Assembly (NCBI GenBank): GCA_963847445.1
Contig: CAWJZV010000028.1
Location: 32,001-96,000 of the forward strand
Reading direction: 5' to 3'
DNA from: an uncultured delta proteobacterium
GTDB taxonomy: Bacteria; Desulfobacterota; Binatia; UBA9968
Length of the DNA stretch: 64,000 nt
Every line of letters starts with the position of its first letter. Position 1 is the first letter of the stretch. Of this stretch, positions 32,919-52,647 are shown in pieces. The position numbers and the translations under genes were made by a program. The notes beneath the pieces were generated by a model. It did no database searches, was not told where the DNA came from, and saw nothing but the letters and a program-made list of their open reading frames with translations.

Positions 32919-33259
32919 GAGCTAAGTGAGTCATTCTAATGGTGAGAGCTTGCGGCAATTACTCTGCGCCTTATAAAAAATCTTTCAACAAGACAGTCGT
33001 AATGACCACGGTTGGTGTTTTCAGCAAACGGTCCGCTCTCAAACCGTTCAAGCCCGGTCCTCCGACTTTGCTTGGCTTCGCTCAGGATAGGCACTCCGGC
33101 TAAGACGTTTTAATAGCGCGGGGAATGGACTCGGCCCAAATTTTCGTCACTCTACTGGAATCGGCGATGTGGCAAGGGTTCTAATAATAACGCTGTTCAA
33201 GGTTCAAGGGTTCAACGTTCAACGACTGATTTGGGCGGGATGAAGGCAAGGATAGGTAC

Positions 33260-33372
33260 GTTCAAAAGCTCAAGGCCAGATCTGCGGGCAAGCTCGCGCG
33301 GCGAGGACCGTTCAAGGGTTCAAAGCTTCAACGAGCTGACTGGCCGATGCCCGTCATCCCGAGTGACCGCGA
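33260..33372 (+). repeat. Direct repeat, copy 1 (about 113 bp)
   Basis: gttcaaaagctcaaggccagatctgcgggca...cttcaacgagctgactggccgatgcccgtcatcccgagtgaccgcga; nearly identical to 34346-34462. Confidence 0.9.
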
Positions 33373-34261: not shown

Positions 34262-34305
34262 CGCTCAAATCGTTCAAGCCGTTCAACCGCTTCGCTCCGC
34301 TCAAA
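34262..34305 (-). repeat. Half copy of the nxr-spacer GTTCAA element
   Basis: aatcgttcaagccgttcaaccgcttcgctccgctcaaa is approximately the reverse complement of the right arm (tttgaacggagcgaagcgattgaacggcttgaacgatt). Confidence 0.8.
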
Positions 34306-34345
34306 ATGTTACCTGATTGCCTAAGCCCTGATCAAAGGTTCAACA

Positions 34346-34462
34346 GTTCAAAAGCTCAAGGCCAGATCTGCGGGCAGGCTCGCGCAGCGAAAGCCGTTCA
34401 AATGTTCAAGGGAAGCTTCAACGAGCTGACTGGCCGATGCCCGTCATCCCGAGTGACCGCGA
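34346..34462 (+). repeat. Direct repeat, copy 2 (about 117 bp)
   Basis: See 33260-33372. Confidence 0.9.
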
Positions 34463-43624: not shown

Positions 43625-45208
43625 ATGAAATTGTTTTTTGCTTCGATGATCGCGCTGGTTCTCGTTTTGAGCGGCCTCGCCGTGATCAAATCCGCCGAAG
43701 TCGTCAAATCACCTCCTGCTTCCTCCCAACTCATTGCGGCCGGAAAGGCTCTCTACGGCCAGCAATGCGCCGCTTGCCACGGCAACACCGGCCGGGGCGA
43801 CGGCGAAGCGGCCTATCTGTTGTATCCCAAGCCGCGCGATTTCGTTGCAGCGAGGTATCGGCTGGTTTCCACCTGGGATCGCGTGCCGACAGATCAAGAT
43901 CTCTTCGACACGATTTCGCGCGGCATGCCCGGCTCAGCGATGCCGTCGTGGGAACATCTAACGACGGAGCAACGATGGGGCTTGGTCTACTACATTAAAT
44001 CCTTCGCGGAAAAGCCGATCGAGATAAGATCTCAGAAAATGCCGTCAGCTGACGGGAGCGGCGGCGAGGGTATCATAGAAGTTCCCAACCGGTTCCTTTT
44101 GATGCGGCGGCAAGAGCACGCGCCCTGGAGCTATATAAGGACGCCTGCGCCTCGTGCCACGGCGCGACGGCAAGAGGCGACGGCGCGCAAGAGCAAAGAG
44201 ACGACGAGGGGTTTCCTACCCGGCCGCGTGATCTGACCGCGGGCATTTTCAAAGGCAGCCCCGATCCGATCGCGCTTTACCGCCATATCGTCGCGGGCAT
44301 TCCTGGAAGTCCGATGCCGATGAGCGATTGGGCTTACGGCGCTGACGCGTGGCATTTGGTCAATTACGTGCGCTCGCTCTCCAGCGATCCGCAACGCGAA
44401 CGCGTGGAGATGAAGAAGTTCACGATTCAAGCGGTACGAGTCACGACTCTTCCGGATCATCCCGAATCGGGAATCTGGCGTCTGGCGTCGCCGGTCAATC
44501 TTCATCTGATGCCGCTTTGGTGGCGCAGCGAACGGCCGGAAGAAGTGACCGTGCGGGCGGTGCATGACGGCAAAGAGATCGCCATTCTCATGGTCTGGCA
44601 CGATGATACAAACGATCAGACCGCACTTCGGCCCCAAGATTTCCGCGATGCATCGGCGATCCAATTTTCGCTAACCGCTAATCCGCCGTTTTTCGCCATG
44701 GGCGAGCAAGCAGCAGCAGTGAATATTTGGATGTGGAAATCCGAGCGGCAAGCCGATCTCCAAACGCGCGTATCAAGAGCTGGAATCTGTTTATCCCAAT
44801 CTTGGTATCGATTCCTATCCGAATCTCATGCGCTCCGCTGTAGAGCAGCCGCATCGTCATGCTCTGACATTGGAATCGGACCCCTCATTCGTGACCGGCT
44901 GGGGTGCCGGGAATATCGTCTCGGATCCAGAACGAAAAAGCCCTGTCGAAGATCTCACGGCTAAGGGATTCGGCACACTGCAAGCGAGACCCAGGATAGA
45001 TCAAAAAGTCGGCGCACACGGACTCTACGGGCACGGTTCCTATGAAGTTATGTTCCGTAGATCCTTGTTGCCCACCGGCCAGGGCGCCGTCGCACTCCGA
45101 GCCGGGACTACCGTGCCAGTGGCCTTTGCCGTCTGGAACGGCAGCGCGGGAGATCGCGACGGCAAGAAGTCGGTGACGATTTGGCAGGATCTAAAAATCG
45201 CAAAATGA
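43625..45208 (+). CDS. Di-heme cytochrome c fused to an ethylbenzene-dehydrogenase-gamma-like heme b domain (NxrC-like); two frameshifts
   Basis: Signal/TM segment, CAACH and CASCH, GMPGSAMP, then FRDASAIQF...FAMG...VNIWMWK and AFAVWNGSAGDRDGKK. Confidence 0.82.
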
Positions 45209-45325
45209 ACGTTGCAAACGTTCAAGCAATTCAAACGTTTTGAACCGCTTGAGGATTGTAACGACTTGAACGTTTGGAACGGCTGGAACGATTGGAACGC
45301 AAGCGACGTCGTAGGAGCGAGAATA
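45209..45325. repeat. GTTCAA/TTGAAC 9-bp-periodic palindromic element, copy A (short; no inner hairpins)
   Basis: cgttcaagc aattcaaac ... cttgaacgt ttggaacgg ctggaacga ttggaacgc, ending gcgacg..ggagcgagaataATG. Confidence 0.85.
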
Positions 45326-48300
45326 ATGAACGATGATGAAGCCAGAGAGATGATGCGGGTAACCCGCCGTGACTTCCTCAAGTGGATGGGCATCGGCACC
45401 GGCGCAGCGGCCATCGCTGCCGGTTCCTTGCACTATTTCAGACCTGCGGACGCTGGCGACAATCCGCTGGCACGGTCGGTCAATCGAGAGTGGGAAAAAA
45501 TTTACCGCGATCAGTACAAATACGATAGCGCTTTCGATTGGGTCTGCTCGCCCAACGACACCCATGCATGCCGCGTTCGGGCTTACGTTCGCAATGGCAT
45601 CGTGACGCGCATGGGGAGCACCTACGATTACCAAGACTACGCCGACCTTTACGGCAACAAAGCAACCGTCAATTGGAATCCGCGCCAGTGCGCCAAGGGC
45701 TATACCTTTCATCGTGTGATCTACGGCCCCTACCGCCTGCGCCATCCGATCGTGCGCAAAGGTTGGAAGGCCTGGGCCGATGCCGGCTTTCCCGAACTGA
45801 CGCCGGAGAACAAAACGAGATACATGTTCGATGCCCGCGGCCAGGACGAGTTCGTGCAAATTTCCTGGCCCGACGCCTTCGACTCCATCGCTAAAGCGCT
45901 GGTCGCGATTTCAGCACGCGTTACAGCGGCGAGGCGGGGAAAAAACTGCTCCTGGCACAGGGCTATCAACCGGAAATGGTCGAAGAGATGGGCGGCGCGG
46001 GAACACGGACAGTGAAAATGCGCGGCGGCATGGGGCTGCTCGGCGTGATCGGCAAGTACGGTATGTATCGTCTCAACAACTCGCTCGCGCTGCTCGACGC
46101 AAAGATTCGCGGCGTCGGTCCCGACAAAGCCCGCGCCGGGCGCAATTTCTCAAACTATACCTGGCATGGCGATCAAGCGCCGGGCCATCCTTGGGTGCAC
46201 GGCCTGCAAGCTTCCGAATGCGACTTCAACGATCTGCGTTTTTCCAAGCTCATCATCATGGACGGAAAGAACCTGGTCGAGAACAAGCTCACGGACTCGC
46301 ACTGGTTTATCGAATGCATGGAGCGCGGCGCGAAGATTGTCGTGATCGCGCCGGAGTACGGCCCGCCTTCGACCAAAGCCGACTACTGGATTCCGATTCG
46401 GCCGCAGACCGATGCTGCGCTTTGGCTCGGGATTACCAAGCTGATGATCGACAAGAAATGGTACGACGAAACTTTCATCAAGCGCTTCACCGATTTCCCG
46501 CTGCTGGTGCGCACCGACAATCTAAAACGGCTGCGCGCCCAGGAGATTTTCCCAGATTATAAGACCACGCTCGCCGCCGATGGGGCGTCCATGAAAATCC
46601 AAGGATTGACCGCCGAACAGCACGCGCAACTCGGCGACTTCGTGATTTGGGACGCAAAGAAGAACGGCCCGGTAGCAATCACGCGCGATGATGTGGGCGA
46701 GGCTATGGCAAAAAAAGGCTTGGACCCTGCACTCACCGACACTTTCAAGGTTAAACTGCTCGACGGCAAGGAAGTCGAAGTCGCGCCGTTGTGGACGCTC
46801 TATCAAACCCACTTGAAGGACTATGACCTCGACACCGTCGCCGATATCACCAGCGCGCCGAAAGCGATGATCGAGCAGCTCGCGCAGGATATCGCGACCA
46901 TGAAGCCGGTGGCGATTCATCAGGGCGAAGGGATCAACCACTGGTTCCACGCCACGGAAATGAACCGCGCGTCATACTTACCGTTGATGCTGACGGGCAA
47001 CATCGGCAAGCCCGGCGCCGGCTGCCATACCTGGGCCGGCAACTACAAAGCCGCCCTGTTCCAGGGATCGCCCTGGTCCGGACCCGGTTTCAAGGGCTGG
47101 GTAGCCGAAGACCCATTCGAAATTAATTTAAATCCCAATGCCCACGGCAAAGAAATTCACGCCCACGCGTACACCAAAGACGAAGAACCTGCTTATTGGA
47201 ACCATGGCGATCTCGCCTTGATCGTCAACACGCCCAAGTTCGGGCGCAAAAATTTCACCGGCAAGACCCACATGCCGACGCCCACCAAAGCTTTGCTCTT
47301 TAACAACGTCAACCTGATCAATAATGCCAAGTGGGCCTACGGCATGATCAAGAATGTCAACCCGAATGTCGAAATGATTGTTTCGATGGACATTCAGATG
47401 ACCGCTTCCATCGAGTATGCGGACCTCGCGCTGCCCGCCAACTCGTGGCTCGAATTCGAAGGCTTGGAAATTACCGCGAGCTGCTCAAATCCATTTCTAC
47501 AAATTTGGAAAGGCGGTATTCCGCCGGTCTTCGACAGCAAAGATGACCTCGACATCATCGCTGGCATCGCCAATGCGCTCGCCAACGTCACCGGCGAGAA
47601 GCGATTCCGCGATTACTTTGCCTTTGCCGCCGCCGACAAACGGGGCATTTACATCCAGCGCCTGCTCGATACCTGTACGACGACGGCCGGTTACAAGCTC
47701 ACTGATATCATGGCCGGCAAGTACGGCCCTCCGGGCGGCTGTTTGCTAAACTTCCGCACCTATCCGCGCATTCCCTTCTATGAACAGGTGCATGACAGCG
47801 AACCGTTCCATACGGACACAGGACGGATGCATGCTTACGCGGACGTGCCTGAGGCGATCGAGTACGGCGAAAATTTCATCGTGCATCGCGAAGGACCGGA
47901 AGCGACGCCGTATCTGCCCAATGTGATCGTCAGCTCCAATCCGCTGGTGCGGCCGGAGGATTACGGCATTCCCACCAACGCCGAGCACTGGGACGAGCGC
48001 ACCATCCGCAACATCAAGATGCCCTGGAGCAAGGTGAAGCAGACCAAGAACTTTCTCTGGGAAAAGGGCTTCCAGTTCTACTGCTTGACGCCAAAGACGC
48101 GCCACCGGGTCCATAGCGGCTGGTCCAACGTCGACTGGCATATGCTGATGGATTCTAACTTTGGTGATCCCTACCGCCTGGACAAGCGAGCGCCCTGCGT
48201 CGGCGAACATCAAATGCACATGAATCCGCAGGCGGCGCGTGATCTCAATATTAATGATGGCGACTATGTTTACGTCGACGCCAATCCGGCCGACCGACCG

Positions 48301-48795
48301 TATCTCGGCGCCAAGCCCGACGATCCGTTCTATCGCGTGTCGCGCCTTATGCTGCGCGTCACTTACAACCGCGCTTATCCATACAACATCGTCATGATGA
48401 AACATGCGCCCTTTATCGCCACGGAGAAAAGCGTGAAGGCGCACGAGACCCGTCCCGATGGCCGCGCTTTATCGGAGAACACCGGCTATCAAGCCAACCT
48501 GCGCTACGGTTCGCAGCAGTCGATCACGCGCAACTGGCATATGCCGATGCATCAGACCGACACTTTGTTTCACAAAGCCAAAGTGTCGATGAGCTTCATC
48601 TTCGGCGGCGAAGCCGACAATCACGCCGTCAACACCGTGCCAAAAGAAACCCTGGTGCGCGTGACCAAAGCCGAAGACGGCGGTATGGGCGGCAAAGGGA
48701 TCTGGAAGCCGGCGACGACGGGTTATTCGCCGGACAACGAAAACGATTTGATGAAACGATATCTGGCGGGAGATTTGACGAAAGTGAAAGTGTGA
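45326..48795 (+). CDS. nxrA: Periplasmic Nitrospira/anammox-type nitrite oxidoreductase / nitrate reductase alpha subunit (Tat-exported, type II DMSO reductase family); one frameshift at about 45920
   Basis: TRRDFLK Tat motif; FS0 motif WVCSPNDTHAC...RQCAKG with Asp ligand; NYTWHGDQAPGHP; HWFH; TPKTRHRVHS. Confidence 0.9.
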
Positions 48796-48803
48796 GATGA
48801 ACA

Positions 48804-48981
48804 CGTTCAAGCCGTTCCAATCGTTCAACCCGTTCAACCCCCTCCTTAGTCCTCCCCCACGGGCGCGGGGGAGGAAAGGAATCGGAGGTTCGAACGACTG
48901 AAACCTCCGAAACGGTTTGAACGGAGCGCAGCGATTGAACGGCTTGAACGATTGGAACGCGAGCGACGAAGGAGCGAGATA
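48804..48981. repeat. GTTCAA/TTGAAC element, copy B
   Basis: Four left 9-mers, CCTCCCCC/GGGGGAGG hairpin, TCGGAGGTT/AACCTCCGA hairpin, right TTGAAC 9-mers, ending gcgacgaaggagcgagataATG. Confidence 0.93.
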
Positions 48982-49419
48982 ATGCCCTTTAAAGACCCCG
49001 ACCCCACCGACCCGAACATGCTCGTCGGCGTGATGCTTTCTGCCGACGCCGAGGCAACCCGTGACATGGCCTACGTCTTCGCCGAGGAATTCGCTCGTCT
49101 CGGCTATACGAGAGAGCAATTGCTCTGGCTGTTTAAGAATCCCTTCTACGGCGGCGCCCATGGCGCCTACCGAGCGCTCGGAGAAAACGAGACGCAGTCG
49201 ATCATCGATGAATGCTTGAACGTCTGGGGCACCATCAGAATAACAGTTCAAGACGTTCAAACAGTTCAAACCGATCAAACCCCCTCCTCAATCCCCCGCG
49301 TCGCGGGGGAGGAAGGGAATCGGAGGTTCGAATCTCTGAAACGGTTTGAACGGAGCGAAGCGATTGACCGGCTTGAACGGTTTGAACCTTCGCGACGAGA
49401 GGAGCGAGACGATGACTAA
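48982..49419 (+). CDS. Small hypothetical protein in the molybdoenzyme operon; C-terminus read through a repeat
   Basis: DPTDPNMLVGV...FAEEFARLG...LFKNPFYGGAH; frame open through copy C to a TAA overlapping the nxrB start. Confidence 0.75.
   Translation: MPFKDPDPTDPNMLVGVMLSADAEATRDMAYVFAEEFARLGYTREQLLWLFKNPFYGGAHGAYRALGENETQSIIDECLNVWGTIRITVQDVQTVQTDQTPSSIPRVAGEEGNRRFESLKRFERSEAIDRLERFEPSRREERDDD
49244..49411. repeat. GTTCAA/TTGAAC element, copy C (inside a reading frame)
   Basis: Same architecture as copy B, ending gcgacgagaggagcgagacgATG. Confidence 0.92.
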
Positions 49420-50677
49420 GGTTCACAACTGGCAGATCGGCCGGGAGATGAATTATCCTTATCCGCAGGCATTCCCGCGCCGCCAATTCGCCTTCGTCTT
49501 CAACATCAACCGCTGCATCGCCTGCCAGAGCTGCACCATGGCGTGCAAGTCGACTTGGACTTTCAGCAAGGGCCAAGAGCATATGTGGTGGGCCAACGTC
49601 GAGACCAAACCCTACGGCGGCTATCCGCAGTTCTGGGACGCCAAGATTCTCGACCTGATGGAGAAAGCCAATCCCGGCAATCAGCAATGGTCGGGCAAAC
49701 CTTCCGCCGATAAGCAGAAACCCTACGGCCAGTTCGACGGCATGACGATCTTCGAAGCGCAAAACATGCTGACGCCGGACAGCGCGCGTGTACTCGGCTA
49801 TCTGCCGACGGATGAAGAATGGAATTCGCCGAACATTTTCGAGGACAATCCGGTTGGAAAAAAAGGCGTGCGCAATGAACTGGATAAAGAAGGCACCGCG
49901 CTGCCGGAACACAAGACCTGGTTCTTTTATCTGGCGCGTATCTGCAACCATTGCAGCTATCCCGCTTGTCTAGCCGCCTGCCCGCGCAAGGCGATCTATA
50001 AACGGCCGGAAGACGGCATCGTTTTAATCGACCAAAAAGAATGCCGCGGCTATCGCAAATGCGTTGAAGCCTGCCCGTACAAGAAATCAATGTACCGCGG
50101 CAACACCCGGGTGTCGGAAAAGTGCGTCGGCTGTTATCCGCGTGTCGAAGGCAAAGATCCCGAAAGCGACGGACAGCCGATGGAAACCCGCTGCATGGCC
50201 GCCTGCATCGGCCAGATCCGCATGCAGGGGCTAGTGAAGATGAACAACGACGGCAGTTGGGCCGAGGACCGCTACAATCCGCTTTATTACATGGTCCACG
50301 TCGCAAAAGTCGCCCTGCCGCTCTATCCACAGTTCGGCACCGAACCCAACGGCTATTACATCCCGCCGCGCTGGGTGCCGCGCGATTATCTGAAACAAAT
50401 GTTCGGCCCCGGCGTCGATGACGCCATCGAGCGCTACAGTTATCCGGACCGCGAACTCTTGGCGGTGCTACAACTTTTCCGCCGCTCGAACCGGATCATC
50501 TTCCGCTACGAAATCAAAGAAGGGCCGCAGATTTACGAAGCGACCCTGCGCGGAAGAAAAATCACCATGTATAACGACACCGTGATCGCCTACGGCCAGA
50601 ACGGTAAAGAAATTTTTCGCACCCAGGTCGAAGAACCGGTGCATGTGCGGCCCAACAAACATGCGAACTCGATATGA
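49412..50677 (+). CDS. nxrB: Nitrite oxidoreductase / nitrate reductase beta (Fe-S) subunit
   Basis: NWQIGREM, NINRCIACQSCTMACK, RICNHCSYPACLAACP, CRGYRKCVEACPY and KCVGCYPR. Confidence 0.93.
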   Translation: MTKVHNWQIGREMNYPYPQAFPRRQFAFVFNINRCIACQSCTMACKSTWTFSKGQEHMWWANVETKPYGGYPQFWDAKILDLMEKANPGNQQWSGKPSADKQKPYGQFDGMTIFEAQNMLTPDSARVLGYLPTDEEWNSPNIFEDNPVGKKGVRNELDKEGTALPEHKTWFFYLARICNHCSYPACLAACPRKAIYKRPEDGIVLIDQKECRGYRKCVEACPYKKSMYRGNTRVSEKCVGCYPRVEGKDPESDGQPMETRCMAACIGQIRMQGLVKMNNDGSWAEDRYNPLYYMVHVAKVALPLYPQFGTEPNGYYIPPRWVPRDYLKQMFGPGVDDAIERYSYPDRELLAVLQLFRRSNRIIFRYEIKEGPQIYEATLRGRKITMYNDTVIAYGQNGKEIFRTQVEEPVHVRPNKHANSI

Positions 50678-50862
50678 TTCAAAGGTGTTCAAACCGTTCC
50701 AATCGTTCAAGCCGTTCAACCCCCTCCTCAGTCCTCCCCCGCGTTCGCGGGGGAGGAAGGGAATCGGAGGTTCAAACGATTGAAACCTCCGAAACGGTTT
50801 GAACGGAGCGAAGCGATTGAACGGTTTGAGCGGTTTTAACGATTCGGCAGGTGAGGTAGCCA
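50678..50862. repeat. GTTCAA/TTGAAC element, copy D
   Basis: Nearly identical to copy B including both inner hairpins; different 3' end (gtgaggtagccaATG). Confidence 0.93.
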
Positions 50863-51670
50863 ATGAACACCAACTAAGTCCAATGTCCATCAAGAGAGTA
50901 ACGATCTCGATGCTACCTTTTGCCGAGCCGCACTTTACAGCGCGCTGGCGATTGGCTTCCAGGCGCCGACGGTGGAAAATCTCGCCCGCTTGCTCACGAC
51001 GGAAAGCCGCGCCGCGCTCATCGGCGCGGCCAGTCTGCTCTATCCGTCCGGCGAGCCTGATCTGATTTCCGTAATCGAGACGTTCCCCAATTTTAATGAG
51101 GCGTATTTGACGGACGTCGCCTCACGCCACCGCGAGCTGTTCGGTCACACCGTGCGCGGACCGATTCCGCCTTACGAGACCGAGTACGGCAACGAAGCGT
51201 TGTTTCAGCTACCCCATGAATTGGGCGACTTGATGGGATTCTACAACGCCTTCGGCCTGATATTGAAGCCGGGCCAGCGCGAGCGCGCTGATCACATCAG
51301 CTGCGAATGCGAGTTCTTGATGTTTCTCGCGCTCAAAGAAAGTTATGCATTGGAGCATGAAGACCGAGAAATGTTGGCGGAAACCCAGAAGGCGGAAAGA
51401 TTATTTCTGCGCGACCACCTCGGCCGATTCCTGCCAACCTTTGTCTCCAAGCTTAGGCGCCATGAAGACTCCGGCTTCTATGGATTGCTCGGCGATCTTT
51501 GCCTGCGTTTGGTTACGGCGGAATGCAGCCGATTACAGGTTCCATCCGGCGCCGCCAATCTCGATCTTCGACCGGCCGATGACGACCGCGTGCCGATGGC
51601 CTGCGGCAGCGGCACCGACTGTGGCGCGATGCCCGGTGCCTGCGTGCCGGAGGAAGCCGATTCGGTATGA
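50863..51670 (+). CDS. TorD/DmsD-family molybdoenzyme chaperone; frameshifted N-terminus
   Basis: PPYETEY, ERADHISCECEF and FLRDHLGRF. Confidence 0.85.
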
Positions 51671-52647
51671 ACCAAGCTCTGAACCTCGTTTACGGGCCGC
51701 GCTTGATCGAAGAAGCGGTGTTTCTCGCCCAGCACGACAGCGATATTTCCGCGGAGCTCCAAGAACGGCGCAATCGTATTTACGAAATCGCCGACGCCGA
51801 CGAGCGCGACCGGCGGTTTAACGAACTCAACCGGGCTTGCTTCGATCGCCTTGGTTTAGGCAAGGTCATCGGCCAGAGCTTGCAAGAACAACCCCTCATC
51901 GGTGCCCACGTCGAGCGCGGCTTCGTGGTCGGCGCGACCCAGGCCAAAGAAGAGGGCGCCGAGCTGTTCGTCGCGCCGGATGAAATAAACAATGGCCACG
52001 GCCACCGCACGCTGCGACTGCTCCTCCGCCCCGAATCGCTGCTTAATGAAGATGGGTTGCGCCCCTTCTTACGCCATGAATTGTTCCATATCAGCGATAT
52101 GCTCGATCCGACATTCGACTACGAACCAACCCTGCCGAAGGCCGAGGGCGGGCCGACCTACGATACCCTGATTACGAGTCGCTATCGTGTGCTCTGGGAT
52201 GTGACGATCGCCGGCCGCATGGTGCGGCGCGGCTGGTGCGCCGCCACCGTTCGCGATCAAGAGTTCAAAGACTTCCGCCAAGCCTTTCCAATGTTGAACG
52301 GCGAGTCTGATGAGTTTTTCAAGCGCTTCTTTGATGCCGCGGCACCGCGCCATAATGAACTTGCCGCCTTCGCCTTCGACCCGAGGGCGGCCACGGACAG
52401 TGTCTCAAACCAAGCGGTCGCGGGAACCCACTGTTCCTTATGTCGCTTTCCCACGCACGCTTTTGAAACCGCGCCTGCGAATCTCGGCGCTGAAGTTTTA
52501 GCAGCGATCAAAGCAGATTTTCCCGACTGGACTCCGGCAAGGGGACTCTGTGTTCAATGCGCCGATCTCTACCGTGGCCGTCAACTGTCGATGGCGGCGG
52601 CAACTTCTGCCCGGATAGTACCTGGTCAACGCACCAGTCGCTCATAG
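51667..52647 (+). CDS. Hypothetical protein with HExxH motif and two C-terminal CxxC pairs
   Basis: LRHELFHISD, CSLC...CVQC; ATGA-coupled to the chaperone gene. Confidence 0.8.
   Translation: MNQALNLVYGPRLIEEAVFLAQHDSDISAELQERRNRIYEIADADERDRRFNELNRACFDRLGLGKVIGQSLQEQPLIGAHVERGFVVGATQAKEEGAELFVAPDEINNGHGHRTLRLLLRPESLLNEDGLRPFLRHELFHISDMLDPTFDYEPTLPKAEGGPTYDTLITSRYRVLWDVTIAGRMVRRGWCAATVRDQEFKDFRQAFPMLNGESDEFFKRFFDAAAPRHNELAAFAFDPRAATDSVSNQAVAGTHCSLCRFPTHAFETAPANLGAEVLAAIKADFPDWTPARGLCVQCADLYRGRQLSMAAATSARIVPGQRTSRS

Follow-up and report, generated by a model that had tools for sequence, protein, structure and literature searches.

In a 64,000-nucleotide (nt) stretch of DNA from an uncultured delta proteobacterium (contig CAWJZV010000028.1 of assembly GCA_963847445.1, positions 32,001 to 96,000; hereafter the window), an nxr-like operon carries four related palindromic elements, A to D, built from short tandem GTTCAA and TTGAAC units. 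The original prediction took them either for a mobile-type repeat that targets stop-start junctions or for an mRNA structure domesticated by this operon. Our analysis favors the former in a particular form: A to D are copies of a genus-wide, high-copy family of fold-back repeats, probably gene-less relatives of cassettes that enclose an S23p (PF05635) gene in a layout like that of 23S rRNA intervening sequences (IVSs), and they would have entered originally short nxr junctions in an ancestor of the genus and been remodelled since. Most of our belief thus goes to selfish copies of S23p-type hairpins rather than to a dedicated regulator, a small part to real domestication in this operon, and what is left to mobilisation by a RAYT-type (repetitive extragenic palindromic [REP]-associated tyrosine) transposase or to a function at the DNA level.

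The four elements and their repeat family

Related elements occupy all four predicted places, all on the forward strand: A (45209-45325) between the nxrC-like and nxrA-like genes, B (48796-48981) between the nxrA-like gene and a small open reading frame (ORF X), C (49243-49411) in frame within the 3' end of ORF X and directly before the nxrB-like gene, and D (50678 to about 50840) behind the nxrB-like stop codon. A repeat search recovered the sequence shared between copies, with B and D matching over 155 nt at 90% identity (block D2) and blocks D1, D3, D4, and D6 as shared sub-blocks. The predicted layout, a left arm of GTTCAA units faced by a complementary right arm of TTGAAC units, holds for B, C, and D, and the complementarity of the arms is apparent from an inverted repeat of 25 nt at 96% identity within B (I10). 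In B, the left arm (48805-48837) comprises four GTTCAA/GTTCCA units, followed by an inner GC-rich hairpin, the TCGGAGGTT hairpin, a right arm (48917-48958) including the spacer GGAGCGCAGCG, and a Shine-Dalgarno (SD) tail before the ATG at 48982. C has its left arm at 49246-49269, inner hairpins, a right arm at 49345-49390, and an SD tail for nxrB. D has a left arm at 50687-50719, both inner hairpins, and a right arm from 50799 to about 50840 that decays after two units, and is without the shared SD tail. Of the inner hairpins that had been described, B, C, and D contain CCTCCCCC/GGGGGAGG, and B and D also contain TCGGAGGTT/AACCTCCGA. The layout breaks down in A, whose left arm is degenerate; A retains a right arm of four TTGAAC/TGGAAC units (45266-45298), and its tail, with GGAGCGAGA, precedes the ATG at 45326.

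The RNA folds computed for B, C, and D are very stable (-87.9, -69.8, and -95.7 kcal/mol; z-scores of -6.8, -4.0, and -6.75), none of 200 dinucleotide shuffles being as good, and in these three elements folds and complementary arms agree on a long stem formed by the terminal inverted repeats. The fold of A is weak (z-score of -1.65), and Rfam covariance models searched over 44000-52000 at E values up to 1 gave no match. One RNA-library contig spans 48753-48927, from the nxrA 3' end into B, with DNA carry-over into the RNA library possible; a relative's RNA-library contig has 18 other letters in place of the inner 106 nt of B. A variant of C found in two DNA runs has one extra 9-nt TTGAAC unit in the right arm after 49372, which implies that the arrays change by whole units; the frame of ORF X is kept. 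Several joints between elements A, C, and D in DNA contigs are most simply explained as assembler jumps between repeats.

The element is not special to the nxr operon. Defining an array as a run of at least three GTTC[AC]A hexamers at a spacing of the 7- to 9-nt class, we counted 391 arrays in the genome (7.19 Mb in 48 contigs, 57.4% GC), 213 on one strand and 178 on the other, at 278 loci: 95 with forward (F) arrays only, 84 with reverse (R) arrays only, 73 with F then R, and 10 with R then F. The short periodicity noted in the window is non-random, as spacings of 7, 8, and 9 nt between GTTCAA hexamers form a genome-wide peak (80, 156, and 206 times), followed by 18 nt (39 times), while any other spacing up to 40 nt occurs at most 7 times. 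Exactly four hexamers make up 261 of the 391 arrays. Among 389 arrays with full flanks, the period is 9 nt in 214, 7 to 8 nt in 131, and mixed in 44, and no conserved sequence was detected beyond the array itself; the exact spacing 9,9,9 was found in 114 arrays, and the consensus of the 9-nt class is (CGTTCAAnn)x4 followed by CGTT. Arms thus consist of three to four tandem units of 7 to 9 nt, with a variable unit number, as in the one-unit polymorphism of C. An unusually long member (C22:13006-13262; C numbers denote contigs of this genome, G000) carries on its right side more than ten 7-nt CGAACCT/TGAACCT units, which suggests expansion by slippage. No target-site duplication was detected around the loci, the longest direct repeat averaging 3.03 against 3.02 +/- 0.09 with shuffled partners.

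In the window, the four elements are accompanied by a further family member at 33195-33222 (forward strand; four GTTCAA units at 7- to 8-nt spacing, just behind a stop-rich stretch) and by partial arrays at 33310-33323 and 34272-34409, so that the predicted set of four was incomplete. All three precede the nxr region and are opposite in strand to the genes around them. Across the genus, the four-unit 9-nt pattern occurs in all 24 genomes searched (1 to 156 copies each; the unpublished genome G005 is among them) and in none of 16 genomes from two other families of the order, and the reversed pattern, used as a control, gave zero in all genomes searched.

Comparison of orthologous operons indicates when the elements arrived. 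In six distant orthologues (L021, L023, L024, L026, L029, and L030; L numbers denote the nxr-like and S23p loci compared), the junctions measure about 15 to 50 nt and hold no element. In closer orthologues, with NxrB 86 to 96% identical, inserts are found at the same junctions, and L001 to L020 have there either GTTCAA elements or hairpins of other tandem words. The inserts of these relatives are of several kinds: GTTCAA arms at 7-, 8-, 9-, or 10-nt periods, with or without inner hairpins, arms of quite different tandem words, and a GC-rich REP-like palindrome. The last, with arms like CCCTCACCC...GGGTGAGGG, was seen at nxr junctions of L003, L007, and L018, sometimes nested with GTTCAA arms. 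Because distant orthologues are without an element and close ones differ in their hairpins, the elements are derived insertions remodelled at fixed sites; judged by the loci compared, they do not belong to the ancestral, conserved make-up of the operon. Scattered copies together with absence from orthologous nxr operons had been put forward as the mark of an ordinary REP-like repeat: copies elsewhere are indeed many, but close relatives carry elements at the same junctions.

Junctions, ORF X, and the Shine-Dalgarno tail

The proposal that a REP- or MITE-like (miniature inverted-repeat transposable element) repeat prefers stop-start junctions fits the placement of the family, for which all figures are approximate, coming from a simple gene caller of our own (6699 genes, 76% of the genome covered). 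Less than half of the locus is covered by called genes at 231 of the 278 loci. Among the 275 loci flanked by called genes, 205 lie in tandem, 51 in convergent, and 19 in divergent gaps, against gap totals of 4808, 920, and 923 (chi-square p 0.001), and divergent gaps are thus avoided. In tandem gaps, the first hexamer follows the upstream stop codon at a median distance of 17 nt, and within 30 nt in 117 of 205 cases. Single arms in co-directional gaps read GUUCAA on the mRNA strand in 80 cases (median 13 nt after the stop) and UUGAAC in 50 (median 124 nt; binomial p 0.011). GTTCAA-reading arrays lie at most 40 nt behind a same-strand stop codon in 148 of 391 cases, and this stop codon is TAA in 71 of the 148, compared with 2114 of the 6699 genes overall. 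Runs of at least three consecutive occupied gaps number eight, against 0.41 expected (maximum of 4 in 1000 simulations). The nxr operon is one of these runs; others include TctC gene arrays, with 7 loci in 10 kb, and NMT1/MetE-like gene arrays.

Element C departs from this pattern. The original prediction treated 49244-49411 as an intergenic junction, but the TAA at 49241-49243 is out of frame, so that ORF X, starting at the ATG at 48982, reads through element C to a TAA at 49417-49419, 7 nt past the nxrB ATG at 49412. In two DNA runs, short-read contigs match the window here and have no indels in ORF X. Since the 9-nt period equals three codons, translation of the left arm of C gives Val-Gln-x repeats. 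A small conserved ORF of about 87 to 100 amino acids (aa) lies between the alpha and beta subunit genes in several phyla (loci L001 to L030) and ends at the beta start codon; the version in the window, taken at 48982-49242, matches no Pfam or NCBIfam family, and similar proteins are all annotated as hypothetical. In four orthologues without an insert (L016, L021, L023, and L024), the end of X lies at most 3 nt to either side of the A of the nxrB ATG, which, judged by position, is the classic arrangement for translational coupling. Of the 19 insert-bearing loci, 12 have an X frame that stays open to at most 8 nt from the nxrB ATG, compared with 4 of the 38 other frames (Fisher p 7e-5, a value that overstates the case since the 19 loci are related and not phylogenetically independent). 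In the window, insertion into ORF X has left the frame open, so that ribosomes translating X would still terminate at the nxrB start. A practical consequence is that GTTCAA elements mislead gene callers, since reading frames extend into them, that of ORF X and, in this assembly, also that of lexA; the latter extension may be an assembly artefact similar to the split frames described below.

The proposed SD tail needs to be confined to this operon. The shared pattern of GCGACG, GGAGCGAGA, and ATG was confirmed in A, B, and C, and within the nxr operon the SD sequence is indeed part of the repeat. Genome-wide this does not hold. UUGAAC-type arms end at most 60 nt before a predicted start in 59 cases, most often 15 to 29 nt before it, and of 52 tails within 45 nt of a start only 4 contain GAGCGA or AGCGAC, two of them in nxr; the exact nxr tail pattern occurs once in the genome, and we rejected the tail as a conserved part of the family. 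D was thought to carry the ribosome-binding site of the chaperone gene; the ATG at 50863, however, opens a frame of only 4 codons and the TorD-like ORF starts at about 50972, so D does not provide it. Several relatives have in common, upstream of X, a native tail of another type, irrespective of the element before it, whereas the window, L004, and L005 have the nxrB-type tail there, which indicates that tails were copied from one junction to another in this operon. The right arm often includes a GGAG-containing internal spacer, GGAGCGNAGCG (35 of its 81 occurrences directly behind a hexamer), and the SD tail may descend from it.

S23p cassettes and competing explanations

The genome holds 11 matches to PF05635 (S23p, Avd-like) and 3 to GxxExxY. 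Two PF05635 genes, C30:274553-274867 and C30:251591-251869, are enclosed by four GTTCAA units on one side and four TTGAAC units on the other; these are the two sites in the genome scan where F and R arrays stand about 0.5 kb apart with no called gene between them. The remaining S23p and GxxExxY genes stand between inverted arrays built from other short words. Genes with such arrays of their own words were noted at C11:71004-71318, C11:91824-92138, C15:91834-92097, C46:369664-369972, C2:15804-16109, C2:147325-147543, C27:91191-91478, C27:90190-90516, and C46:333597-333896, so that one genome holds many dialects of one cassette design. Across 30 S23p loci from this genome and its relatives, GTTCAA/GTTCCA arms flank 19 of the 20 genes with identity of at least 59% (two of the 20 from the unpublished G005) and none of the 10 with at most 55%. 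Arm sub-types (GTTCAA 9 nt, GTTCCA 9 nt, and GTTCAA 7 to 8 nt) require 5 changes on the S23p protein tree, compared with a mean of 15.8 after shuffling. The PF05635 ORF is absent from the loop of the four nxr copies, but gene-less pairs keep the sub-terminal sequence of the cassette, with CGGA after the left arm in 41 of 77 and TCCG before the right arm in 47 of 77, over a background of 8%; these motifs match the SD region and the 3' end of the cassette.

By eye, 8 of the 20 cassettes lie behind the 3' end of lexA, LexA being confirmed by Pfam in this genome, and 10 behind one other gene that resembles DNA polymerase IV only weakly (E 2e-6, below cut-off). In this genome, GTTCAA-armed S23p genes stand directly behind lexA and the weakly polymerase-IV-like gene at C30:274472-275600 and C30:251501-253100 (L112 and L116), and these positions recur in many members of the genus. 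This location suggests SOS-linked expression, and the cassettes are long-standing residents of two operons that are probably damage-inducible. Two array-poor genomes (2 and 1 copies) are without an intact GTTCAA-armed cassette; the association between array count and cognate S23p presence across the genus is suggestive as an association only. The arms make S23p a candidate for the protein reading the 9-nt register that the original prediction had envisaged. RNase III is encoded in the genome (C4:77961-78347). In the 23S gene (C45:180142-183148), no inverted repeat of at least 16 nt and no intervening sequence was seen, and no reverse transcriptase was detected beside the S23p cassettes, the sole match in the genome lying at C45:931-1624.

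Several known repeat classes resemble the family in part. Like MITEs, a gene-less derivative shares ends and sub-terminal sequence with a gene-carrying element; unlike MITEs, target-site duplications are missing and the full-length cargo is no recognisable transposase. Cyanobacterial short tandemly repeated repetitive (STRR) heptamers are tandem short units in intergenic parts of operons, sometimes in inverted arrays. They share this organisation with the elements described here but belong to another phylum and use other words; our literature search returned passing mentions of STRR only, and no reported connection between STRR and S23p genes is known to us. Palindromic elements of Rickettsia and mycobacterial interspersed repetitive units (MIRUs) are inserted in frame into coding sequence or sit between cistrons whose stop and start codons overlap, MIRUs not being palindromic. 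Element C in ORF X is comparable, with unrelated sequences and hosts. REP elements near stop codons reportedly lower upstream translation, according to Liang and co-workers.

The closest parallels are the 23S rRNA IVSs with an S23p ORF known from Coxiella, Leptospira, and others (PMC4990558). In Coxiella, the IVS has a terminal stem of 28 bp and is cut out by RNase III; three tandem heptamers plus a degenerate fourth precede its S23p start, their number varying between strains (PMC4990558). Common to both are terminal inverted repeats in a long stem, arms of tandem units, carriage by a host RNA, and a PF05635 gene with its own SD sequence in the loop, here at two loci with GTTCAA arms. In contrast to these IVSs, the present elements lie in mRNA junctions or behind stop codons and not in 23S rRNA (helix 25 or 45), the nxr copies and most others are gene-less, and there are hundreds of copies per genome. 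The S23p protein of Xanthomonas is a homopentameric ring, as cited in PMC4990558, and PF05635 resembles Avd, a protein of diversity-generating retroelements (DGRs) that belongs to a homologous family of four-helix bundles and is likewise a nucleic-acid-associated oligomer (PMC10053308); DGRs differ in having a reverse transcriptase and template/variable repeats, none of which was found beside the cassettes. REP, BIME, and REPIN-RAYT systems (PMC3116915, PMC3337134, PMC3733652) share with the family high-copy extragenic palindromes and inverted doublets (278 loci and 77 FR pairs here), a location near stop codons, rarity in promoter gaps, the absence of target duplication, and possible 3' mRNA stabilisation in operons. 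The family differs from them in its four tandem units, (CGTTCAAnn)x4, REP sequences being one imperfect palindrome of 20 to 40 nt with a GTAG/CGTC tag. In the literature we searched, a tandem-armed S23p layout was found only for rRNA IVSs, and no report of gene-less, high-copy S23p-type hairpins in mRNA junctions was found.

In this family, arms of about four tandem 7- to 9-nt units face each other as 5'-GTTCAA...TTGAAC-3' around a variable loop able to hold small hairpin modules, and we propose that the gene-less elements are relatives of the cassette in which the same arms and sub-terminal sequences enclose the S23p gene. Having entered the short junctions of the nxr-like operon in an ancestor of the genus, and remodelled thereafter, they are probably transcribed with the operon and fold into very stable stems. 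By analogy with rRNA IVSs and REP elements, these stems might be cut by RNase III or block exonucleases. Such removal or clamping at the RNA level would make the insertions tolerable and, as a side effect, could uncouple the stabilities of the cistrons and so possibly affect subunit ratios. Any role of S23p, and any mode of spread of the copies, is likewise putative. It is tempting to go further and to speculate that an Avd-like, ring-forming S23p reads the four-unit arms, is switched on by damage via its lexA and Y-family-polymerase-like operons, and seeds or maintains hundreds of gene-less hairpins behind stop codons as mRNA counterparts of rRNA IVSs; cut by RNase III or clamped, these would partition operons such as nxr into separately stable cistrons, with in-frame copies such as C preserving coupling. 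We consider it rather unlikely that this extended scenario holds in full.

Several points weigh against descent from S23p-type selfish hairpins, in addition to the approximate nature of the placement statistics. In many species an element stands at the same junctions, and the reading frame of X has been retained; either fact could mean that the host uses the hairpins. The RNA evidence consists of contigs, which are unable to show RNA ends and may derive from carried-over DNA. The match between arm type and protein tree is expected of any linked DNA and is no sign of recognition. Cassettes occupy the same two host positions in many genomes and are therefore vertically inherited and not visibly mobile, and to our knowledge S23p is not known as a nuclease or transposase. 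Finally, eight same-genus genomes, some of them incomplete, have 11 to 110 arrays and no S23p match of at least 62% identity.

The first two of these observations lead to the alternative that survives best, namely that selection keeps the hairpins in the nxr-like operon as an RNA device for cistron stability or translation ratios, whatever their selfish origin. Occupation of the four junctions in most close relatives, even by unrelated hairpin families, speaks for it, as do the excess of open X frames through the insert (with the non-independence stated above), the frame-preserving 9-nt polymorphism of C, and the resemblance of the SD tails of A, B, and C to one another and to those of L004 and L005, which suggests local homogenisation. 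Structured 3' ends are moreover described as creating differential decay in operons such as malEFG (PMC5927463). On the other hand, distant orthologues do without any element, the sequences and inner modules of the elements change from one species or strain to the next, different families occupy one junction in different species, and seven other runs of occupied gaps lie in unrelated operons. Arm-to-arm complementarity is 15.4 within a locus and 14.8 +/- 0.36 with the arms of other loci, a difference of about 1.7 standard deviations that is unconvincing as covariation, and of 31 inner hairpins 18 are GCG/CGC, about 10 show one-sided change, and only 3 show two-sided change, a weak signal. Domestication appears unlikely, and the domesticated structure of the original prediction finds no support as a dedicated device.

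Mobilisation as a classical REP/REPIN family by a RAYT appears improbable. A 307-aa ORF at C2:49258-50181 reaches 88.3 bits on the NCBIfam model REP_Tyr_transpos (cut-off 80) and lies within the densest array cluster of the genome, with TTGAAC-type arrays 1.4 kb to its left and GTTCAA-type arrays to its right from 1.2 kb onward; the placement behind stop codons and the missing target-site duplication would also suit such an enzyme. However, no inverted repeats adjoin the C2 gene, arrays are missing within about 7 kb in 4 of the 5 regions inspected around close orthologues of the RAYT in other genomes, one 99% complete genome has 42 arrays and no RAYT match at 1e-10, paralogues are numerous across the order, also in families without arrays, and the arms are tandem direct repeats instead of a single tagged palindrome. 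With the link not reproducible in orthologous regions and nothing palindromic next to the gene, RAYT is not favored as mobiliser. The C2 protein and its relatives carry a C-terminal helix-turn-helix like that of DnaA domain IV and form a multi-copy family in the order, with up to 26 matches in one genome, which is unusual for RAYTs. Operator-like or nucleoid-protein sites acting on duplex DNA, with hairpin potential as an incidental trait, would account for the prevalence of exactly four units, for the 179 loci with a single arm, and for spacers that are not complementary across arms beyond the family level, yet this reading seems very improbable, given that a 7- to 9-nt spacing puts successive sites on different faces of the duplex, that divergent (promoter) gaps are avoided, that single arms favor the sense strand, and that FR pairs outnumber RF pairs by 73 to 10.

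For nitrogen-cycle genomics, an nxr "regulatory element" of this kind should not be taken as specific to NXR, as the family fills many operons of an uncultured soil and sediment genus. Three topics usually kept apart are joined by these data: intergenic palindromes of the REP type, the S23p genes found in ribosomal IVSs, and the Avd family. If the hairpins were processed like intervening sequences, they would represent a widespread and overlooked route for the harmless insertion of selfish DNA into operons and for cistron-specific mRNA stability.

The operon and its assembly

The elements are surrounded by genes for a cytochrome c, a heme-b subunit of the EB_dh family, a molybdopterin subunit with a twin-arginine translocation (TAT) signal, ORF X, a 4Fe-4S subunit, a TorD-like chaperone, and a 326-aa protein without a family. 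NCBIfam returned only type II DMSO-reductase subfamily matches, all under cut-off, and "nxr" is therefore a label and not a finding. All features given here lie on the forward strand. The nxrC-like heme-b subunit gene (44314-45208) is split in the assembly by a 1-nt difference near 44767, and the nxrA-like molybdopterin subunit gene (45326-48795) by a 2-nt difference near 45914. Contigs of other runs are without the 1 nt at 44767 and without the 2 nt at 45914, and orthologues are in frame; the splits are probably assembly indels or a strain variant rather than signs of pseudogenes. The assembly has indel problems, the genomes compared are related to one another, and the data of all four runs used are contigs, from which read depth, ends, and strands are not readable; stretches of low cover, such as 49077-49357 in the RNA runs, therefore carry no evidential weight.

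ORF X (48982-49419) encodes a conserved small protein of no known family, of which residues 1 to 87 are conserved and the remainder is encoded by element C. It is followed by the gene for the nxrB-like iron-sulfur subunit (49412-50677) and that for the TorD/NarJ-like chaperone (50972-51670). The 326-aa ORF behind the chaperone gene (51667-52647) has no match in Pfam or NCBIfam, and is conserved and syntenic in all orthologous operons examined. The closest relatives of NxrB are found in metagenome-assembled genomes titled Candidatus Binatia or "Deltaproteobacteria", and the operon order nxrC-nxrA-X-nxrB-chaperone-E is kept as far as Methylomirabilota and Acidobacteriota.

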